Shown piece by piece: positions 9,723 to 61,350 of a stretch of DNA of 61,393 nt. The position numbers and the translations under genes are program-made. The DNA comes from a bacterium (GTDB lineage Bacteria; Patescibacteriota; Patescibacteriia; 2-12-FULL-60-25). The stretch is from NCBI GenBank assembly GCA_021806685.1, contig JAJZQU010000001.1:1-61393 (forward strand), written 5' to 3'. Within the stretch, counting starts at the first letter, position 1. Each line of letters starts with the position of its first letter. Below the pieces are notes generated by a model. It had not been told where the DNA came from, did not search any database, and worked only from the letters and a program-made list of their open reading frames with translations.

Positions 9723-10934
9723 ATGCCTTCATTCAAGTACCAGGTCAGGACAGCCGACGGGCGTATTCAAGCCGGAATTGTTGAGGCTGCTACTTTGGAC
9801 GCTGCCAATGAGGCCCTGGCTGAGCGTGAGTACCAGGTTTTGGCCATAGAGCCTTATAAGGGGGTTGAAGCGGCCGCCCAGTCCATCACCCAGTTCTTAA
9901 ACCGCATTTCGTCCAAAGAGATGGTGGCTGCCGTGCGCATGCTGTCTGTCATGGTTTCCGCCTCAGTGCCCTTGGCTGATTCTTTGCGCAACATATCGCG
10001 GCAAACCAAAAACCCCCGTTTCAGGTCAATCCTAAATGACGTTGCCAATGAAATAGAAGGAGGCGCGCGCTTGTCTGAGGCCTTGGAACGTTACCCTAAA
10101 CTTTTCTCACAATTCTTCGTCAACATGATCCGTTCGGGCGAGACAACGGGCCAGCTTTCTGAAGTCATGAATTATTTGGCTGACCAGCAGGAAAAGGATT
10201 ATGACATGATGTCAAAGCTCAGGGGCGCCCTGTCTTACCCGGCTGTCATCGTAACAGGCATGGGCATTGCCGGTTTTGTCATGATGGTCTATGTCGTACC
10301 CAAACTCACCCAAGTATTGACTGAGGCCAATGTCCCTTTGCCGTTGAGCACCAGGATACTGATTGGGACATCGAGTTTCATGGCCCAATTTTGGTGGTTG
10401 ATCATCATCGCCGTAGTGGTTTTTGCCGTGTCGTTTGTTTACTGGATCAAAACTGATTACGGACGATGGATTTGGGACAGCGTCAAGCTTAGGATCCCGG
10501 TCATGGGACAACTTTTGCGGGAGATGTATGTGACGCGTTTCTGCCAGTCTATGTTTACTCTCATGAAAGGCGGCGTGACCATGGTCCAGGCTTTGGAAAT
10601 AGCAGCTTCGGTTATGGGCAATGCTGTTTGGAAACGAATGATTATCGAAACCATCCAGGAAGTGAATGATGGCAATTCCTTGGTGACTGCCATGCAGAAG
10701 GAAAAGACAGTGCCTTCCATGGCTGTCCAGATGCTGGCGGTGGGTGAGGAAACAGGCAAATTAGAGGAGGTTTTATTGAGGGTAGGGGAGTTCTATTCGC
10801 GGAACGTGGCCAATATGACATCCAACATGATGACCTTGATTGAGCCGATCATCATGATTGTTTTAGGCCTGGCCGTCGGCACCATGGTCTCGGCCATTAT
10901 GATCCCGATGTATAACCTCTCCTCAGCCGTCTAA
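9723..10934 (+). CDS. pilC: Type IV pilus platform protein PilC (GspF family)
   Basis: Two GspF-type repeats and three TM segments, with the typical ~400-aa length. Confidence 0.9.
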   Translation: MPSFKYQVRTADGRIQAGIVEAATLDAANEALAEREYQVLAIEPYKGVEAAAQSITQFLNRISSKEMVAAVRMLSVMVSASVPLADSLRNISRQTKNPRFRSILNDVANEIEGGARLSEALERYPKLFSQFFVNMIRSGETTGQLSEVMNYLADQQEKDYDMMSKLRGALSYPAVIVTGMGIAGFVMMVYVVPKLTQVLTEANVPLPLSTRILIGTSSFMAQFWWLIIIAVVVFAVSFVYWIKTDYGRWIWDSVKLRIPVMGQLLREMYVTRFCQSMFTLMKGGVTMVQALEIAASVMGNAVWKRMIIETIQEVNDGNSLVTAMQKEKTVPSMAVQMLAVGEETGKLEEVLLRVGEFYSRNVANMTSNMMTLIEPIIMIVLGLAVGTMVSAIMIPMYNLSSAV

Positions 10935-10939
10935 AAAAG

Positions 10940-10948
10940 TGCTATAAT
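10940..10948 (+). promoter_or_regulatory. Extended -10 box TGCTATAAT upstream of the major pilin gene
   Basis: Perfect TGnTATAAT. Here it lies 131 nt from the ATG, with the MITE-like element in between. Confidence 0.35.
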
Positions 10949-10980
10949 TATTCACAAGCTAATTTAATAATCTTAAATTG

Positions 10981-11068
10981 TTGTCATCCCGACCGAAATG
11001 TAATGAAGTGGAGGGATCTTGGTTAACGAAGATTCCTCGACTCGCTGCTGCTCCCTCGGAATGACATA
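10981..11068 (-). repeat. MITE-like ~88-bp element with TGTCAT(T/C)CCGA.. terminal inverted repeats (copy a)
   Basis: It is roughly 80% identical by eye to the reverse complement of 21534..21620. The termini match the inverted repeats that flank the GIY-YIG gene at 52511 and 52897. Confidence 0.6.
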
Positions 11069-11079
11069 ACGTACGTTTT

Positions 11080-11592
11080 ATGCAAACCAAGAAAGGTTTT
11101 ACGCTCATTGAGCTCTTGGTGGTTGTGGCCATCATCGGCCTCTTAGCCACCTTGGGCGTTATTGCTTTCCGCGATGCCCAAAGGAAAGCGCGCGACACCA
11201 AGCGTTTGGGCGATGTCAAAATCATGGTCCAGTCATTGGCTCAGGCCAATAACGAGGGATCTTACGTGATTTGCCGGGCTGGTTGCGCCGCTGCCCCGGT
11301 CAGCGGAGACAAGATGTCAGCCTTAACCATCTGCAAGCGTGCAGACTGTGCAGGCGGTGCAGCTGATGATACCAAGGAATTTGCCAACTTAGCCGTCATG
11401 ATTGACCCTCTAAAGCCGGCAGCGGCTTGTGCAGTGGGAAGCGCGGCCCAGTGTGATTATGGTTTTGTGCCTGCTACTACGGCTTATAAGCTGGATGGTT
11501 ATACCATCTACTTCTGGACAGAGCAGACGAACTTGGCTGGTGTTGCTGCCGGCAACTTGCACTCGGCCAATTCAAATGGCGTCATGAACTAG
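11080..11592 (+). CDS. pilA: Major type IV pilin (prepilin)
   Basis: Class III signal MQTKKG|FTLIELLVVVAIIGLLA with Glu at +5, six Cys in the globular part, and its own terminator downstream. Confidence 0.85.
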   Translation: MQTKKGFTLIELLVVVAIIGLLATLGVIAFRDAQRKARDTKRLGDVKIMVQSLAQANNEGSYVICRAGCAAAPVSGDKMSALTICKRADCAGGAADDTKEFANLAVMIDPLKPAAACAVGSAAQCDYGFVPATTAYKLDGYTIYFWTEQTNLAGVAAGNLHSANSNGVMN

Positions 11593-21533: not shown

Positions 21534-21620
21534 CTGTCATTCCGAGCGAGTTTGACGAGTCGAGGAATCTTCGTTAACTGAGATTCCTCCACTTCACTTC
21601 GTTCCGGTCGGAATGACAAA
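21534..21620 (+). repeat. MITE-like ~88-bp element (copy b)
   Basis: CTGTCATTCCGAGCGAG....CGGTCGGAATGACAAAAG terminal inverted repeats, with an internal GAGGAATC..GATTCCTC hairpin. Confidence 0.6.
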
Positions 21621-21665
21621 AGAGGGTTGGACTTCACCAGTTATTTGGGTTAAACTGGCTGTCAT

Positions 21666-21968
21666 ATGAAGTTATCCAAGGAAGAAATCGCGCATCTGGC
21701 CAAGCTGGCCAGGCTGGATTTGCCCGAAGAAAAATTGGAGAAAATAACCAAGGATTTTGGGTCTATTTTGGAATATGTCGGCCGGATCCAAAAAGTTGAT
21801 ATCCAGGGCGTTGAGCCTTTTACCATGCCCGCCAAGAGCGAGGGTTGGAGGCCGGACAAAGCATTTGAAGTCGACGAAGCAACCCGTGAACTGATCCTGG
21901 CTAATTTCCCGGAACGGGCTGGCGACCTTTTGGCTGCCCCGGGCGTTTTTGAAACACCGAAAAAGTAG
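21666..21968 (+). CDS. gatC: Asp/Glu-tRNA amidotransferase subunit C
   Basis: LSKEEIAHLAKLARLDL..EE and ~100 aa, directly upstream of gatA. Confidence 0.9.
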   Translation: MKLSKEEIAHLAKLARLDLPEEKLEKITKDFGSILEYVGRIQKVDIQGVEPFTMPAKSEGWRPDKAFEVDEATRELILANFPERAGDLLAAPGVFETPKK

Positions 21969-23886: not shown

Positions 23887-24636
23887 ATGATCCCTTGGTT
23901 TGAGTTCCACTCATTCATGCTTGGGCCGCTGCGCATCCAGGTTTGGGGTACGTTGGTTGCTTTGGGTTTTTTGGCGGCAATTTGGGTTGCGGCCCGCTGC
24001 GCCAAGCAACAAAACATCCATCCTAACCACATCTGGAATATGGCGCCGTGGATTTTGGTTTCGGCTTTTGTAGGTGCCCGGCTTTTCCATGTTTTATTTT
24101 ATAGCCCGATTTGGTATTGGTCGCACCCTTGGGAAGCGGTAAACTTTGCGCTCCCGGGTTTTTCCATGATGGGAGGGGTGATAGGCGGAGTTCTGGCTGG
24201 TTTGATTTATGCCAAATATCATAAGCTCAATCTTTGGTCCATGGCTGACCTTGTGGCTTATGCCTTGCCATTGGGAACTGCCATTGGGCGCATCGGATGT
24301 TTTTTGATCCACGACCATCCCGGCACGCTGACGAATTTTATTTTAGGCGTGAAATATCCTGATGGAGTGAGGCACGACCACGGCCTCTATCTCTCGCTTC
24401 TCGGTTGGGCCATTTTCATCCTCTTTTATTTTTTGGGGCGCAAGAAACGGCCGCCAGGTTATTTTGTCGGTTTATGGTTAGTCATTGACGGCTTTGTTAG
24501 ATTTGTTTTGGATTTTTACAGGATCGGGGATACGCGATATATTGGTTTGACGCCTACCCAGTGGTTACTCATCCTGACTGTCGCAACAGGCATCTGGATA
24601 CTGTTGCGTAACCGAAAACTTGAAACTGGAAACTAG
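23887..24636 (+). CDS. lgt: Prolipoprotein diacylglyceryl transferase
   Basis: Multi-TM body with GARL, GGVIGG and GRIGCF..HD motifs. The last codons (KLETGN) are encoded by GAAACT heptad repeats. Confidence 0.9.
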   Translation: MIPWFEFHSFMLGPLRIQVWGTLVALGFLAAIWVAARCAKQQNIHPNHIWNMAPWILVSAFVGARLFHVLFYSPIWYWSHPWEAVNFALPGFSMMGGVIGGVLAGLIYAKYHKLNLWSMADLVAYALPLGTAIGRIGCFLIHDHPGTLTNFILGVKYPDGVRHDHGLYLSLLGWAIFILFYFLGRKKRPPGYFVGLWLVIDGFVRFVLDFYRIGDTRYIGLTPTQWLLILTVATGIWILLRNRKLETGN

Positions 24637-49741: not shown

Positions 49742-52468
49742 ATGACAGATGAGCTGATAGTGCCTAAAATCCCGCCAGCTATTGTTTGTTCGGCTTGCAA
49801 TGGCGACCCGCGTGCTTCACGGCACTGCAAACAATGCGGTGGAGCTGGCATTGGCATACCGAGCGACGAAGGGTTTTTGGTTTGGGCGACAACGGTTGAT
49901 GATTTTACCGCTGCCATCCGCAAATTGCGCATCAAAGTCAACGCTGTAGTCCACATGCTAGTCATGGCGGCCATTGTGTTGTGTTTGATTGCCTTCTTTT
50001 GGCAAGTCATTCCGAATTTTACAATCGAGGACGTTAAAACTTTAGTTTTTTGGACAGCTGGCTATTGGTTTGTGACGCTTTTTTATGTGGCCATTGTCCT
50101 GGCAGCTTTTTTTATCTTCCGCATGAACGAGTTTACGGCCATTGCCAAGGATCTGCCGCATTGGCTTACCAGGCATGATACTTCAGATGTTAAGCAGGGC
50201 AAGTCAGATATAGTTCGTCATTCGTTGGACGTCTCGCCTTATTATTCTCCAACTGCCATGGAGGTCGTTGAGTCGGCTTATAAACTGGCCAAGGAGTTGG
50301 GTAAGATCGAAGTTACGCCGGAAATATTATTTGCAGCCGTCTTGTCCGGCCATGATGGTTCGCTTTTCCTGGTCAGGCTTGGCTTGCCTTTTGATAAGAT
50401 CAAAGAGCCTTTGGTCAGGTTGATGATGGTTGGTTCAGCCGGCACGCCGCCCATAACTTTTTCACGCGAGGCCAAACGTGTCTTGGCTTCGGCTTTTGCT
50501 TTGGCAGACGAAACGCACCGCAAACATGTCACGCCCATGGAGATCTTTTTGCAGGCTTTTGCTGAAAGCCCGAAGCTGCAGGAGCTGTTGGACAGTTTGG
50601 GTTTTCCTTTTACCCATGTTTCGCATGTGGCCCAATGGGTCTTGCTCCAATCCAAGATGCGCGAGGACCAGGACCGTTTTGTGCGGTTGGCCAAACTTAA
50701 GCCAAAATCAGCCATGAACCGGGCCATGACAGCCCGTCAAACGCTTTTGCTCGACAGGTTTAGCGAAGACCTGACATTGCTGGCCCGCCAGGGTTATCTG
50801 GCGCCCATGGTAGGCAACCAACAGGTTATGGAAGAGTTGTTGCGCGGTTTGGAGAGCGGGCAAAGAGGCGTCGTCTTAGTCGGTGAGACTGGGACGGGCA
50901 AAGCGGCTGTTGTCGAGCAATTAGCTCGCCGCATGGTGGAAGAAGACGTGCCTGACATTCTTTTTGATAAGCGCTTGGTCTCAGTCAACTTGGCGCAGGT
51001 TATTGCTTCAGGCGATCCTGGCCTGGCAGCCGAGCGATTGGTTGAGATGCTGCACGAAGTGGCTTTATCTGGAAATATAGTTTTGGCACTTTATGGCATC
51101 GAAGCTTTGGTTGGATCAGGGTCAGGGCCTATGGATTTGGCAGAAACCTTATCCAGCGAGTTGGATAAAGGTTATTTCTTGTTGGTGGCCACTGCCACGC
51201 CGCAAGCTTGGACCCAATATTTGGAACGCAGGACATTAGGCAAGCAAGTAGTCAAAGTTATTGTCCCTCCGGCCGAAGCAACACAAACAATCCAAGTCTT
51301 GATGGCCAAGTCAGGTCCAATCGAATACCAGAATAAAGTATTTTTCTCGTTTGCTGCAATTGAAAAAGCCACGAATTTAGCTATCCGTTATTTGCATGAC
51401 GTGGCGCCGCCGCAAAACGCGCTCAATGTCATCCGCGAGGCAGCAGTTGCTGCGCGCAAAATCAGGGGAGAGGGCACTTTTGTTTCAGCCGAAGACGTGG
51501 CCAAAATCGTACACGACAAGACAAATATTCCGGTGGAGATGGTAACTGAACAAGAATCGCAAAGCTTATTGAACCTCGAATCACGCATGCATGGCCGCAT
51601 AGTTGGCCAGGATGAGGCAGTGGTGGCAGTGGCCAGGGCCATCCGCCGCGCTCGCGCCGAGTTGCGCGAAGGCAAGCGCCCGATTGCCAACTTCATGTTC
51701 TTGGGGCCGACTGGCGTTGGCAAGACGGAATGTGCCAAGACTTTGGGCCAAGAATATTTTGGCGATGAAGGTGCCATGGTGCGCTTGGACATGTCAGAAT
51801 ACCAGGACAAATCATCGATTGCCCGCATGATTGGCGCTCCGGGCGACGAGCGCGGCGGATTACTGACCGAGGCCGTGCGCCAAAAGCCGTTTACAATTGT
51901 CTTGCTTGATGAAATCGAGAAAGCCCACCCGGATATTTTGACGCTTTTCTTGCAAGTCATGGATGACGGACGTTTGACAGACGGCATTGGCCGCACGATT
52001 GATTTCACGAACACGATTGTCATCATGACATCCAATGCTGGCACTCCTTACATCCAATCAGCCGTGTCAGAAGGCTTATCAATGGAACGCATTAAGACTG
52101 CTTTGCTGGAACGTGAGCTTAAAAGTATTTTCCGCCCGGAATTCTTGAACCGGTTTGACGGCATTATCGTCTTCAAGCCTTTGACGCGCGATGAAGTCGT
52201 GCAAATCGCCTGGCTGATGGTTAATAGTGTGGGCAGGCAGCTCGAGGCTAAAGGCATGAAGCTCAGGGCAGATGATAAGGCTGTTGAAGATTTGGCTGAT
52301 GCCGGCTTTGACCCGGCTTTTGGCGCACGGCCTTTGCGCCGCGTCATCCAAGATCGCGTGGAAACGCCTTTGGCTGATATTTTGCTCCAAAAACAAGCTG
52401 GTCGGCGCGATACAATCGTACTTAATGCCGATGGCAGCTTAAGCGTGGAAAAAGCCCCGGCACTATAG
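49742..52468 (+). CDS. Membrane-anchored Clp/Hsp100-family AAA+ ATPase (zinc-finger N-terminus, two TM helices, Clp-N repeats, degenerate D1, intact D2)
   Basis: CSACNG..CKQCGGAG, then two hydrophobic helices and two Clp_N-like repeats. D1 Walker A is GETGTGKAA, but LFIDE is replaced by LALYGIEAL. D2 has GPTGVGKTE, Walker B LLDEIEKAH and the sensor GARPLRR. The ATG at 49742 is chosen over ORF-track start 49673. Confidence 0.8.
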   Translation: MTDELIVPKIPPAIVCSACNGDPRASRHCKQCGGAGIGIPSDEGFLVWATTVDDFTAAIRKLRIKVNAVVHMLVMAAIVLCLIAFFWQVIPNFTIEDVKTLVFWTAGYWFVTLFYVAIVLAAFFIFRMNEFTAIAKDLPHWLTRHDTSDVKQGKSDIVRHSLDVSPYYSPTAMEVVESAYKLAKELGKIEVTPEILFAAVLSGHDGSLFLVRLGLPFDKIKEPLVRLMMVGSAGTPPITFSREAKRVLASAFALADETHRKHVTPMEIFLQAFAESPKLQELLDSLGFPFTHVSHVAQWVLLQSKMREDQDRFVRLAKLKPKSAMNRAMTARQTLLLDRFSEDLTLLARQGYLAPMVGNQQVMEELLRGLESGQRGVVLVGETGTGKAAVVEQLARRMVEEDVPDILFDKRLVSVNLAQVIASGDPGLAAERLVEMLHEVALSGNIVLALYGIEALVGSGSGPMDLAETLSSELDKGYFLLVATATPQAWTQYLERRTLGKQVVKVIVPPAEATQTIQVLMAKSGPIEYQNKVFFSFAAIEKATNLAIRYLHDVAPPQNALNVIREAAVAARKIRGEGTFVSAEDVAKIVHDKTNIPVEMVTEQESQSLLNLESRMHGRIVGQDEAVVAVARAIRRARAELREGKRPIANFMFLGPTGVGKTECAKTLGQEYFGDEGAMVRLDMSEYQDKSSIARMIGAPGDERGGLLTEAVRQKPFTIVLLDEIEKAHPDILTLFLQVMDDGRLTDGIGRTIDFTNTIVIMTSNAGTPYIQSAVSEGLSMERIKTALLERELKSIFRPEFLNRFDGIIVFKPLTRDEVVQIAWLMVNSVGRQLEAKGMKLRADDKAVEDLADAGFDPAFGARPLRRVIQDRVETPLADILLQKQAGRRDTIVLNADGSLSVEKAPAL

Positions 52469-52939
52469 GTGACTCTGTCATTTCGACCGTAGTCACGTAG
52501 GTGGCTCCCTCTGTCATCCTGAGCGAAGTGAGTTCGACGAACGCAGTCGAAGGACCTGGCTTTAATATATGGTTCCTAAAACATATTCTGTCTATATAAT
52601 GGCCAGTGAGGCTTGTGTGCTTTACATAGGAGTGACGAGTGGGCTTGAGGTTAGAGTTTATCAGCATAAACAGAATTTAGTTGAAGGATTCACTAAAAAG
52701 TACAAGTGCCACAAATTGGTATATTTTGAATCTACAACAGATGTTCAAGCAGCTTTAGCAAGGGAGAAACAACTGAAGGGTTGGACCAGATTCAAGAAGA
52801 TGCAGTTGATTCAAAAATTTAATCCAACCTGGAAAGATCTCTCGGAAGAGTTCGGTCCAGATCCTTCGACTTCGTCGGACTCCGCTCAGGATGACAGGGG
52901 AGAAGAGCAACTTCGCTCGGAATGACAGAGAGAAGTGAC
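52469..52939. mobile_element. GIY-YIG nuclease cassette bounded by nested inverted repeats
   Basis: The inner inverted repeat is 52511..52556 versus 52860..52897 (CTGTCATCCTGAGCG..TCGAAGGACC / GATCCTTCGA..CGCTCAGGATGACAG). The outer pair is TCTGTCATTTCGA (52476..) versus TCGGAATGACAGA (..52930). No target-site duplication was verified. Confidence 0.5.
52569..52925 (+). CDS. GIY-YIG (URI) domain nuclease
   Basis: YSVYIMAS..VLYIGVT, R...H, KLVYFE and AL.REKQLKGW..KK. The last ~20 codons are encoded by the right-hand inverted repeat. Confidence 0.85.
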   Translation: MVPKTYSVYIMASEACVLYIGVTSGLEVRVYQHKQNLVEGFTKKYKCHKLVYFESTTDVQAALAREKQLKGWTRFKKMQLIQKFNPTWKDLSEEFGPDPSTSSDSAQDDRGEEQLRSE

Positions 52940-52974
52940 TAAGCACTGAATTTATGTTAATTTAGACCGGTCAT

Positions 52975-54084
52975 ATGGATCAGATGGGACTATTGGTTAT
53001 TTGTGGTTATATCTTATTGGGAACAGCCTTACTGTCTTTTGTTTTAAGCTACTTTAGCCGGCGCTGGGCCATCCGGTTTAAAGCTTTGGATATTCCCAAG
53101 AGCCCACGTAAAATCCATAAAGAACCAGTGCCGCTTTGGGGAGGGTTGGGGATTGGGTTGGCGCTTATCACAGCAGTCTTTGTCTTTGGATCAGATGTTA
53201 CCTTCTTGAGTTCAAAAATATCGCTTTGGCAGATTGTTGGTTTTATTCTTGGTATAATCATCCTTTGTATTGGCGGCATGCTGGACGATAAATATGACCT
53301 CAAAGCCTGGCAAAGCCTCATCTTTCCCGTTCTGGCATCTTTAGTCGTTGTTTTGACCGGCACATCGATTGTACATGTGACCAATCCCGGTACTTCGGCT
53401 GCCTTTTTCTTGAACTGGTGGGTTTGGCATCCGTTTGGGTCAGCTTGGAGCCTTTCTTTGCCAAGTGATTTGCTGACATTTATTTGGATATTAGTAGCCA
53501 TTTTTGCAACCAAGATTACAGATGGGCTGGACGGCCTTGTCTCCGGCATAACTGTCATTGGCGCAGCCATGGTTGGCTTACTGTCAGTCATGAAAACTTA
53601 TTTCCAACCGGAATCAGCCATTTTGGCCGCAGCGGTTGGAGGGGCATATCTTGGTTTTTTGCCAAAGAACATGCATCCGGCCAAACAGTTTTTGGGTGAA
53701 GGCGGAGCAACCATTGCTGGTTTTTGTTTGGGTTTCCTGGCCATCCTTTCTAGCGCCAAGATTGCCATAGCCCTCGCCGTGTTGGCCATTCCGGTGGCTG
53801 ATGTGGCATTTGTTTTTATGCGGCGCATCTATAATCATAAACCTTGGTACCAAGGCGATGATACGCACCTCCATTTTCGGCTTTTGGCAGCTGGCTTGCC
53901 GCACCGCACTATTGTTTTCTTGCTTTGGATTGTTTCTGCTTCAGCCGGTGTTATGGCACTCACCTTCCAGACGCGCGGCAAGATTTTTTTGATAATCGCC
54001 CTGGCTTTGCTGACATTCCTTGTCTCGTGGCTGGCTGATAAAGCTATTAAGCGTCGACAACTAATCGTTAGCAACCATGACTAA
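52975..54084 (+). CDS. Glycosyltransferase family 4 (WecA/TagO/MraY-like polyprenyl-phosphate sugar-1-P transferase)
   Basis: KIHKEPVPLWGGLGI, MLDDKYDL and TDGLDGLVSG, with a multi-TM body. Confidence 0.8.
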   Translation: MDQMGLLVICGYILLGTALLSFVLSYFSRRWAIRFKALDIPKSPRKIHKEPVPLWGGLGIGLALITAVFVFGSDVTFLSSKISLWQIVGFILGIIILCIGGMLDDKYDLKAWQSLIFPVLASLVVVLTGTSIVHVTNPGTSAAFFLNWWVWHPFGSAWSLSLPSDLLTFIWILVAIFATKITDGLDGLVSGITVIGAAMVGLLSVMKTYFQPESAILAAAVGGAYLGFLPKNMHPAKQFLGEGGATIAGFCLGFLAILSSAKIAIALAVLAIPVADVAFVFMRRIYNHKPWYQGDDTHLHFRLLAAGLPHRTIVFLLWIVSASAGVMALTFQTRGKIFLIIALALLTFLVSWLADKAIKRRQLIVSNHD

Positions 54085-60594: not shown

Positions 60595-60660
60595 ATGTCC
60601 CGAGCGAAGTCGAGGGATGGAAAGAGTTTATCTGTCATCCTCGCGCATGCGGGGATCCAG
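60595..60660. repeat. Degenerate copies of the TGTC..CCGAGCGAAG / TGTCATCCTCGCGCATGCGGGGATCC repeat family
   Basis: Sequence similarity to the termini of 21534..21620 and of the GIY-YIG cassette. Confidence 0.45.
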
Positions 60661-60682
60661 AAATAAAAAGAGATAAAATCCC

Positions 60683-60710
60683 TTGACTTTTATGTATTGA
60701 TATGTAATAG
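60683..60710 (+). promoter_or_regulatory. Sigma70-type promoter TTGACT-N16-TAATAG (TG-extended) for the 60759 orphan
   Basis: Read directly. It shares the CCCTTGAC context with the promoter at 54549. Confidence 0.45.
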
Positions 60711-60758
60711 ATTACACATCCTGGTTCAAGGTGAATCAGAAAATGAGGAGGTCGTAAA

Positions 60759-61217
60759 ATGACATGTCCGATCTGTGGGAGGGTGTATTGCGATCATAGT
60801 CCAGCCGAGCGAGGTCAGACGCTAAATGAGATGTTGGCTGACTGCAGTGCTCCGTCTGTCGTGGAGAATGCGGAGGCGACGAGACCCAAGCCCCAGAGCA
60901 AGAATGCGCGTTCGACGGCCGCGGCCAGCAAGAAGAAGGAGGGCCTAATCCAACACAAGAAGTACTTCGGTGGCAAGGTGCAGACTCTCGGCTTCCACAG
61001 CGGAGACGCCATCACCTTCGAGACCTGTGTCGTCGAACCGGGCGAGTACGACTTCGGCACGGCGGAGCAAGCAGAGATGATCACGTGCACTTTCAATGAG
61101 ATGACCGTGAACGGCAAGGCGATCAGGCCGGGCAGCAGGCCATTTGTGATCCGGCCGGGCGATCCACGCAAGATTTCAGCCAAGCAGATGGCGACCTACA
61201 GCTGTATGTGCAGGTAG
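60759..61217 (+). CDS. PpnP/DUF1255-like cupin with an N-terminal Cys-containing, Lys-rich extension (GC-richer, SD-bearing orphan)
   Basis: The C-terminal ~90 aa (KKYFGGKVQTLGF...VVEPGEYDFGTAEQAEMITC...ATYSCMC) parallel the pyrimidine/purine nucleoside phosphorylase PpnP. GAGGAGG lies 8 nt before the ATG. Confidence 0.6.
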   Translation: MTCPICGRVYCDHSPAERGQTLNEMLADCSAPSVVENAEATRPKPQSKNARSTAAASKKKEGLIQHKKYFGGKVQTLGFHSGDAITFETCVVEPGEYDFGTAEQAEMITCTFNEMTVNGKAIRPGSRPFVIRPGDPRKISAKQMATYSCMCR

Positions 61218-61245
61218 CAACGCCGCGCAGGGGGGCTCTCACAGG

Positions 61246-61277
61246 CCTGGAGAACGATTGTTCACCGGGTCTTTTTT
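61246..61277 (+). terminator. Intrinsic terminator of the 60759 gene
   Basis: Imperfect stem CCTGGAGAAC/GTTCACCGGG, followed by TCTTTTTT. Confidence 0.45.
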
Positions 61278-61281
61278 ATTC

Positions 61282-61350
61282 CGTCATTCCGAGCGAAGGC
61301 GAGGAATCCGCGGAGCTGATGAACTTGGGTGAATCCGCAAAGCTACTTCA
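61282..61350. repeat. Further copy of the GTCATTCCGAGCGAAG..GAGGAATC repeat family at the window edge
   Basis: CGTCATTCCGAGCGAAGGCGAGGAATCCGC matches the MITE and GIY-YIG-cassette termini. The element may continue beyond the window. Confidence 0.45.

Follow-up and report, generated by a model that had tools for sequence, protein, structure and literature searches.

What binds a small nuclease gene to the repeats that enclose it, and do the two move together? This question is raised by a stretch of 61,393 nucleotides from a Patescibacteria bacterium (contig JAJZQU010000001.1; hereafter the window), where a short open reading frame (ORF) for a GIY-YIG nuclease is framed by nested inverted repeats and elements with the same termini lie elsewhere without any ORF. 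An earlier note on this DNA had compared the arrangement with that of an autonomous element and its miniature derivatives, in which the nuclease rather than a transposase would be the mobilising protein.

The nuclease gene and the hairpin units

The ORF encodes 118 amino acids, as the earlier note had stated, and its sole Pfam match is the GIY-YIG domain (PF01541, residues 6-78, E 2.4e-13). It lies between a ClpC-like gene, which ends at 52468, and a gene for an MraY-family glycosyltransferase (GT4), which starts at 52975, and is present in a single copy in the 61-kb window. The core of the protein is 96 aa long (52569-52856), and the last 22-23 codons are a read-through of the right-hand repeats, through the inner one and then into the outer one, in agreement with the roughly 20 codons proposed before. 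The protein has a great many homologues, with a typical length of 93-97 aa, and many of them carry C-terminal tails such as DPSTSLRSAQDDRK, which is a translated right-hand repeat.

A tblastn search of the plasmid collection PLSDB with the window protein gave matches in two Neisseria gonorrhoeae chromosomes deposited as plasmids, one of them at positions 1881716-1881973 of NZ_CP119142.1 (E 2e-19). This locus has no annotation in PLSDB and carries canonical NTS repeats on its flanks; its translation is 94 aa long if four N-terminal residues are allowed, and then reproduces the Y6/Y17/E64 numbering of the N. meningitidis enzyme SsnA (PMC11893778). Because of the flanking NTS repeats, the length of 94 aa and the residue numbering, we identified the gonococcal locus as ssnA. 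BLASTP of the window protein against it showed 49% identity (E 4e-29), and residues Y9, Y19 and E66 of the window protein, which are invariant across 30 homologues, align with Y6, Y17 and E64 of the meningococcal enzyme.

SsnA is the type member of the Ssn family defined by Chenal et al. (Nat Commun 2025; PMC11893778) as GIY-YIG enzymes of ~94 aa that cut single-stranded DNA (ssDNA) beside a Ssn-related motif (SRM), a motif generalised from the Neisseria repeat NTS (CGTCATTCCCGCG...GCGGGAATC, in full CGTCATTCCCGCGMAVGCGGGAATCYRG). The meningococcal protein (NMV_0044, CDD cd10448) has 94 aa and a single domain; it binds the hairpin solely as ssDNA, cuts a few nucleotides upstream, and is inactive on the reverse strand, on duplex and on RNA. 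The three upstream nucleotides and the 3' C of the motif matter, and cleavage is abolished by Y6A, Y17A and E64A. Three other homologues likewise cut next to their own motifs, which makes four members with SsnA. Site-specific nicking of ssDNA next to the hairpin is the only activity demonstrated for the family, and in Neisseria it restricts natural transformation: deletion of ssnA leads to about five-fold more transformation with NTS-bearing DNA. Among genomes with more than 200 SRMs, 81% encode a homologue, and the threshold for a homologue was a tblastn E < 1e-10 (PMC11893778).

No Ssn structure was present in the PDB copy searched. A single-sequence PDB search with the window protein gave no match, nor did an NCBIfam search, and in a profile search of the PDB the closest solved structures were the UPF0213 proteins 1zg2 (E 1.6e-8) and 1ywl (E 1.1e-5). 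An assignment of the protein to UPF0213/COG2827 (Slx1-like), suggested by these profile matches, was withdrawn because Ssn is kept apart from Slx1 in PMC11893778.

The nested inner and outer repeats of the earlier note were recovered in place by a repeat finder. The inner pair is made up of 52508-52529/52879-52900 (91% complementary), 52530-52541/52871-52882 (92%) and 52541-52559/52857-52875 (89%), and the outer pair of 52473-52493/52910-52930 (86%). Both pairs can be read as SRM-like units, two on either side of the gene (Table 1). The units share one plan: the tag TGTCAT stands at the 5' end, ATYCY and RGRAT form the stem, and in every good copy a C adjoins the stem on its 3' side. The inner part is as a rule GAGCGAAG...CGA, with an insert that varies; most window units have GAGCG...CGA as their inner stem, in which G.A pairs are probable, and a long inner hairpin is frequent. 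The outer right unit matches the head consensus exactly over 16 nucleotides. Six matches to the motif CTGTCATTCCGA with at most one mismatch were counted in the window, where 0.18 would be expected, and none of 100 shuffles reached six.

The 5-bp stem covaries among copies (ATTCC/GGAAT, ATCCT/AGGAT, ATCCC/GGGAT). Lone units gave no fold-energy signal (z about 0 to +1), and the evidence for a hairpin is therefore the covariation and not the energy. Rfam searches, of the whole window at gathering thresholds and of two regions at E up to 10, returned just one tRNA and chance miRNA matches. A hammerhead-like or kink-turn-like RNA, considered by eye from CUGA...GA motifs, was rejected because stem I could not be accommodated and Rfam gave no match.

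About 11 units occur at five sites in the 61 kb; all sites are intergenic, and every copy sits downstream of plus-strand genes. The two elements of about 88 bp without an ORF, which had been described as roughly 80% identical and opposite in orientation, are indeed inverted copies of each other with about 80-85% identity, the order of unit subtypes included, and each consists of two units round a central GTTAAC. The doublet at 10981 folds with z -4.7 as RNA and -1.4 as DNA, and that at 21534 with z -5.9 as RNA and -5.3 as DNA. The degenerate copies that the earlier note had placed at 60595..60660 and 61282..61350 stood in part: the former contains two units and the latter begins with one, but 61311-61350 has no recognisable unit and is flanking sequence common to the window and the comparison locus L085. 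In the window, the units at 60633 and 61282 are separated by a GC-rich insert of 620 bp (60661-61281), which carries the ORF 60759-61217.

Table 1 Positions of the cassette, its gene and the SRM-like units in the window. L001, L085 and L088 are comparison loci in related genomes.
Feature	Position	Strand	Remarks
Cassette	52469..52957	+	489-bp indel in multiple alignment, starting directly past the ClpC stop codon
Outer left SRM-like unit	52473..52506	+	Tag CTGTCAT and 5' half of hairpin; 3' stem degenerate; part of an inverted-repeat pair and of a direct repeat; kept in L001
Inner left SRM-like unit	52509..52559	+	CTGTCATCCTGAGCGAAG-(inner hairpin)-GTCGAAGGACC
ssn gene	52569..52925	+	Single-domain GIY-YIG nuclease, named from PF01541 and homology to Neisseria ssnA
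Inner right SRM-like unit	52857..52900	-	Inverted relative to inner left unit; found by unit detector; 40/44 identical to L001
Outer right SRM-like unit	52910..52930	-	Head only, CTCTGTCATTCCGAGCGAAGT on minus strand; partly deleted in L001
Inverted doublet without ORF	10981..11068		Units 10983-11017 (+) and 11032-11065 (-); between pilC-like gene and pilin gene
Inverted doublet without ORF	21534..21620		Units 21536-21568 (+) and 21583-21617 (-); between ABC-transporter gene and gatC
Degenerate single unit	60596..60622	+	ATGTCCCGAGCGAAGTCGAGGGATGG; tag without AT; absent from L085 and L088 at that position
Canonical SRM	60633..60660	+	TGTCATCCTCGCGCATGCGGGGATCCAG; orthologous unit in L085, none in L088
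Single unit	61282..61310	+	CCGTCATTCCGAGCGAAGGCGAGGAATCCGC; orthologous L085 unit directly beside the 60633-type unit

Association of gene and units across phyla

The published SRM pattern, HGTCWYN(0-2)YYVSBRHN(0-5)WNVSBRGN(0-2)RNCYNB (PMC11893778), matches the window once, at 60633-60660, with 0.32 matches expected in shuffles; the other window units miss it because their inner stem is of the GAGCG type or their loops are longer. It was found within 1 kb of ssn in 11 of 61 homologous loci tested and failed in the other 50. A large class of SRM variants escapes the published pattern, and published counts therefore probably underestimate the system.

In contigs representing one genome per species, more than 595 relatives of the window protein were found, and the best 80 (46-65% identity) were analysed. 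These best 80 of more than 595 come from Acidobacteriota, Firmicutes, Patescibacteria, Proteobacteria, Chloroflexi, Planctomycetes, Omnitrophota and others. Seventy-three of their loci had enough flank to be searched, and the 10-mer GTCATYCYGA was present upstream, with its complement downstream, in 36 of the 73, and on at least one side in 50; the published figures for ssnA homologues are 42% with an SRM on both sides and 71% with one nearby (PMC11893778). When a permissive hairpin detector was run over the homologous loci, it gave ~3.3 units per kb at distances up to 300 nt from the gene and ~0.10 per kb beyond 1 kb, an enrichment of about 30-fold next to ssn across phyla; in a separate count, the strict 10-mer head also gave 0.10 per kb beyond 1 kb. 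Of 92 nearest units, 75 have the tag directed away from the gene.

The loci differ in how gene and units are fitted together. In L002-L004 the gene is wedged between thiG and thiF and the repeats abut its start and stop; in five loci (L020, L036, L040, L047 and L048) the ORF sits between complete doublets; and arrays of alternating units were observed in L020, L028 and L083. A second ssn copy was seen in 4 of the 80 loci (best 80 of more than 595), each of which spans up to about 20 kb.

Judged by sequence comparison, the ORF and the units of the window very probably belong to the published Ssn/SRM system, with both the flanking and the ORF-less units as the cognate SRM. The system would then extend into the candidate phyla radiation (CPR), whose members are thought to depend on DNA uptake. 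The likeness lies in a single-domain GIY-YIG protein with a core of 96 aa against ~94 and with the catalytic Tyr, Tyr and Glu kept, in the inverted hairpin repeats on both flanks, which have GTCAT as tag and a C 3' of the stem, and in the many ORF-less intergenic copies. There are differences as well. The host belongs to the Patescibacteria, a group not named in PMC11893778, and most window units, with their GAGCG...CGA inner stem and often a long hairpin, fall outside the published pattern. The nearest tags point outward in most loci here and inward at the gonococcal locus, and the window ORF extends by about 22 codons into the right-hand repeats. In addition, presence and absence of the cassette between close relatives, as described below, was not found in the available text of that paper.

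Presence and absence of the cassette among relatives

The site between ClpC and GT4 was compared between the window and L085, L087, L088, L001 and L089/L090; L085, like the locus L091 used below, is from assembly GCA_029004215.1. In L085, L087 and L088, whose ClpC genes have 90.7%, 88.0% and 75.2% nucleotide identity to that of the window, the site is empty: the ClpC stop codon is followed at once by TAACTTAG, and the spacer of 17-18 nt contains no unit. The window, L001 and L089 hold 490-530 bp there. L001 (ClpC 77.7%) has the same cassette as the window, and L089/L090 (ClpC 72.4%) have a diverged ssn (62% amino acid identity) with two units on each side. The window flanks resemble L085 up to both cassette borders. 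The cassette is the gene with its four flanking units, gained or lost as one block, because the three closest relatives have neither the block nor a scar. The distribution over the ClpC-GT4 sites fits three gains and fits three precise losses.

Insertion polymorphism between related genomes, which the earlier note had proposed as a test, was thus found: the three closest relatives are without the cassette, and the variation extends to the 21534 doublet and to the units near 60.6 kb. The doublet is absent from L093, and other, unrelated hairpins occupy its site in L091 and L092. At the 60.6-kb site, L088 has no unit, L085 has two adjacent units, and the window has an extra unit together with the 620-bp insert.

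The cassette differs from its surroundings in composition, with a GC content of 43.7% (38.5% in the ORF core) against 48.6% for the window. It is also better conserved towards L001 than the genes beside it: nucleotide identity is 86% in the cassette ORF and 76-78% in the flanking genes, and four-fold degenerate sites are identical at 24 of 35 positions in the ORF and 260 of 522 in the flanks (p 0.036). The non-coding repeats of the cassette are identical at 129 of 144 positions, and the stretch 52469-52568, which includes both left units, at 89 of 100.

Target-site duplications were also looked for, and no consistent one was seen in filled against empty sites, in the unit sites of the relatives or in the 36 two-sided loci. 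A possible GCACT repeat of the window cassette is missing from L001.

Possible mobility of the cassette and comparison with known systems

How would a nickase act on such a cassette? By analogy with the four characterised members, Ssn would work on ssDNA only, binding the folded hairpin of one strand and nicking a few nucleotides 5' of the tag; in Neisseria, motif-bearing transforming DNA is cut on entry, with less integration as the result. Because the tags face outward in most loci, one nick per strand is predicted, and the two would fall on the outer edges of the cassette. Nicks placed in this way would be in keeping with a part played by Ssn if the cassette and the ORF-less doublets are moved or copied, and could start copying or excision. 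We know of no strand-transfer activity of Ssn.

Along the lines of the earlier note, the cassette would be an autonomous transposable element with the GIY-YIG protein as transposase, and the 88-bp doublets and single units would be its non-autonomous, MITE- or REPIN-like derivatives moved in trans. The terminal inverted units are conserved along with the protein across phyla, the cassette is present or absent at one site without a scar and is foreign in composition, and its similarity in the window and L001 exceeds that of the flanking genes. The doublets, moreover, are oriented two-unit elements that were copied whole and vary among relatives, and the outward tags place the predicted nicks at the cassette borders. 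The idea of IS-like mobility is not new, since it was raised as a hypothesis by the authors of PMC11893778, whose Discussion likens NTS-ssnA-NTS to an insertion sequence and the whole system to REP/BIME repeats with domesticated transposases (RAYT). However, no junction compared showed a consistent target-site duplication, the 61 kb contain the gene once, a second copy occurs in only 4 of the 80 loci (best 80 of more than 595), and joining of DNA strands is not known for any GIY-YIG enzyme, as far as knowledge of the superfamily goes (PMC1564403). The cassette occupies the same site in the window and L001 despite 22-24% divergence of the flanks, and in diverged form in L089, so that long residence would fit as well as repeated insertion; and the function proven in Neisseria is restriction of transformation (PMC11893778). 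We consider a GIY-YIG transposase rather unlikely. Of the earlier proposal, what stands is a link between gene and units that is not due to chance, and the existence of ORF-less units; the nuclease is a candidate for the mobilising enzyme and no more, nicking alone having been demonstrated for the family (PMC11893778).

Two further explanations can be considered. The doublets may have spread by other means, and a selfish ssn ORF may have invaded their centres by cleavage and repair, as in homing. An ORF-less doublet does look like the cassette minus its ORF; in L002 nothing separates the repeats from the start or the stop of the gene, and in the five loci mentioned above complete doublets enclose the ORF. 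The outer pair of the window, moreover, combines the two unit types of the ORF-less doublets and retains their order. But the empty ClpC-GT4 sites are without any unit, so the ORF must have arrived, or left, with its units; the outer units of the window lack 3' stems, which is unexpected for insertion into the centre of a doublet; Ssn spares double-stranded DNA (PMC11893778); and a separate DNA-binding domain, which known GIY-YIG homing enzymes possess, is missing from the protein. Invasion of doublets by the gene is accordingly improbable. The other explanation would have the units serve in ordinary regulation, as hairpins that terminate transcription or stabilise mRNA, or form a structured RNA; they would be fixed in position, and their nearness to a GIY-YIG gene would be coincidental. 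This agrees with the intergenic position of all copies downstream of plus-strand genes and with the strong folding of the doublets as RNA. It is hardly credible in view of the rest: no terminator-like site, that is a stem followed by a T run, was seen at any element scanned, no Rfam family matched, the positions are not conserved in close relatives, units are about 30-fold enriched beside ssn across phyla, and SsnA does not bind the RNA form (PMC11893778). The same terminator scans indicate that the termini are not terminators, which is in favour of the earlier note.

Within the Ssn/SRM reading, we suggest tentatively, as a possibility that we rate below even, that SRM-ssn-SRM moves actively, as a mobile element of Patescibacteria and of further phyla, and that the Ssn nickase is the only enzyme which it encodes. 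Nicks at the outward tags would then start copying or excision during replication or transformation, and SRM doublets as well as SRM-flanked cargo, for example the 620-bp insert, would share the same machinery. If this were true, it would be the first class of prokaryotic transposable element with a GIY-YIG nuclease as its driver, and a mobility driven by Ssn would mean a new class of bacterial mobile DNA.

The Ssn/SRM cassette shares features with several known systems. Like insertion sequences, it has terminal inverted repeats that bound a gene for a candidate enzyme, and it shows presence/absence polymorphism at orthologous sites. With the REP/REPIN/BIME-RAYT systems it has in common hairpins whose 5' end carries a short conserved tag, units in inverted doublets and alternating arrays, a nuclease gene that sits between repeats of its own and is apparently of low copy number, and recognition of a folded single strand. 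RAYT, however, is a domesticated IS200/IS605-type Y1 HUH transposase, and with a GIY-YIG enzyme here the likeness is functional and architectural only. The tag is GTAG in REP and GTCAT here, Ssn is without a known covalent intermediate or strand transfer, and REP repeats are lineage-specific whereas the SRM sequence is conserved across phyla. The GIY-YIG homing endonucleases (I-TevI and the Seg proteins) resemble Ssn in the catalytic domain, the selfish-looking gene and the patchy distribution, but they possess a C-terminal DNA-binding domain, have a double-stranded target and lack flanking inverted repeats, whereas the window protein is a bare domain. The UPF0213/Slx1-like proteins (1zg2, 1ywl) are the closest by structure profile and are of the same minimal size; Ssn (cd10448) is nevertheless treated as a separate family in PMC11893778, and our literature search did not find a repeat association for UPF0213 proteins.

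Three points go beyond what the available text of PMC11893778 describes: the block-wise gain or loss of the nuclease gene with its hairpins, the large class of SRM variants outside the published pattern, and the frequency of SRM in viral contigs that lack the gene. Whether units distant from the gene follow the stem type of the ssn-adjacent ones was examined with the permissive detector; a weak match signal was seen (0.24 vs 0.14, reached by 25 of 2000 permutations), on which we do not rely because this detector admits false positives. When viral contigs were scanned with TGTCATYCYGAGCGAAG, at least 120 stretches matched, and in the 45 loci inspected nearly all matches were complete units. None of the 120 viral loci among the matches listed encodes an Ssn homologue. 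Abundant units in viral contigs without a nearby ssn are compatible with an action of Ssn in trans.

Insertion sites of SRM units and the segment between two of them

An ORF-less inverted pair of Ssn-related motif (SRM) units, hereafter a doublet, has a pilC-like gene (T2SSF) on one side and, on the other, a gene for a pilin with an N-terminal methylation motif; it thus lies inside a type IV pilus cluster. This location is of interest because Ssn, the single-domain GIY-YIG nuclease, acts on transforming DNA in Neisseria (Chenal et al. 2025, PMC11893778).

The + strand of the window has just three copies of the 8-mer GTCATATG, within which the SRM tag GTCAT is contained, and two of the three fall at the start codons of gatC and of the GT4 gene, in both cases a short way downstream from a site of SRM insertion. 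Because the GT4 allele of L085, a locus empty of the ssn cassette, also has GTCATATG, the 8-mer is native sequence, the other empty alleles being one or two bases different (GTCTTATG in L087 and GGCTTATG in L088, both lacking the cassette at GT4, and GGCATATG at gatC in L093, a close relative). Its presence at the insertion sites may reflect a target preference, or else chance.

The ABC-transporter/gatC spacer, occupied by an SRM doublet in the window, holds unrelated GC-rich hairpin palindromes in two close relatives (L091 and L092) and is empty in another (L093); it looks like a hot spot for differing palindromic elements. The lgt product is 375 aa in L091 vs 249 aa in the window, and that of L091 has extra matches to 23S_rRNA_IVP and bAvd-like, which suggests an insertion or fusion within the gene.

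In the window a segment of ~620 bp separates two SRM units which, in the close relative L085, lie immediately next to each other. Its GC content is 54% overall and 58% within its ORF, vs 48.6% for the window, and the ORF encodes 152 aa with a weak match to Ppnp (PF06865). The segment looks like a cargo gene put between hairpin units, and the SRM-ORF-SRM order is like the "NTS-gene-NTS" arrangement described for Neisseria, NTS being the Neisseria version of SRM.

Coordinates of the features compared
Feature	Sequence	Positions
pilC-like gene to pilin gene	window	9723-11592
Doublet in pilus cluster	window	10981-11068
GTCATATG at gatC	window	21661-21668
GTCATATG at GT4	window	52970-52977
Spacer palindrome	L091	8515-8575
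Spacer palindrome	L092	1-60
Spacer without palindrome	L093	9660-9690
lgt	window	23887-24636
lgt	L091	10855-11982
~620-bp segment	window	60661-61281
ORF in segment	window	60759-61217
Adjacent SRM units	L085	13307-13395
ssn cassette	L002	9310-9720
ssnA locus (L214)	NZ_CP119142.1	1880216-1883473

SRM units near ssn genes and in viral contigs

In the window's Ssn clade (L005-L084), the published SRM search pattern detects a motif no farther than 1 kb from the gene in just 11 of 61 loci, and a GTCATYCYGA-based search detects one within ~300 nt in ~68% of 73 loci; the two figures differ in the loci covered and in the distance allowed. In many units of this clade, GAGCGAG and CGAGTCGA enclose a long inner hairpin rich in GC.

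TGTCATYCYGAGCGAAG is present in at least 120 stretches of viral contigs (IMG/VR, L094-L213). Inspection of 45 of these loci showed complete SRM units or doublets in nearly every case, and among the matches listed an Ssn homologue is encoded in none of the 120. Since dRS3 repeats of Neisseria are phage integration targets, according to PMC11893778, some of these stretches may be prophage ends.

ssn genes at other loci

The ssn cassette of the distant locus L002 (also L003 and L004) is wedged between thiG and thiF inside a thiamine operon. The end of the thiG frame falls within the left SRM, and the ssn frame extends over the start of thiF; ssn insertion is thus tolerated within an operon. In NZ_CP119142.1 the N. 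gonorrhoeae ssnA frame is interrupted close to its beginning, with a stop six codons into the ATG frame; either the gene is a pseudogene or the sequencing is in error. PLSDB files this 2.17-Mb chromosome, together with another of the same size and species (NZ_CP119140.1), as plasmids.
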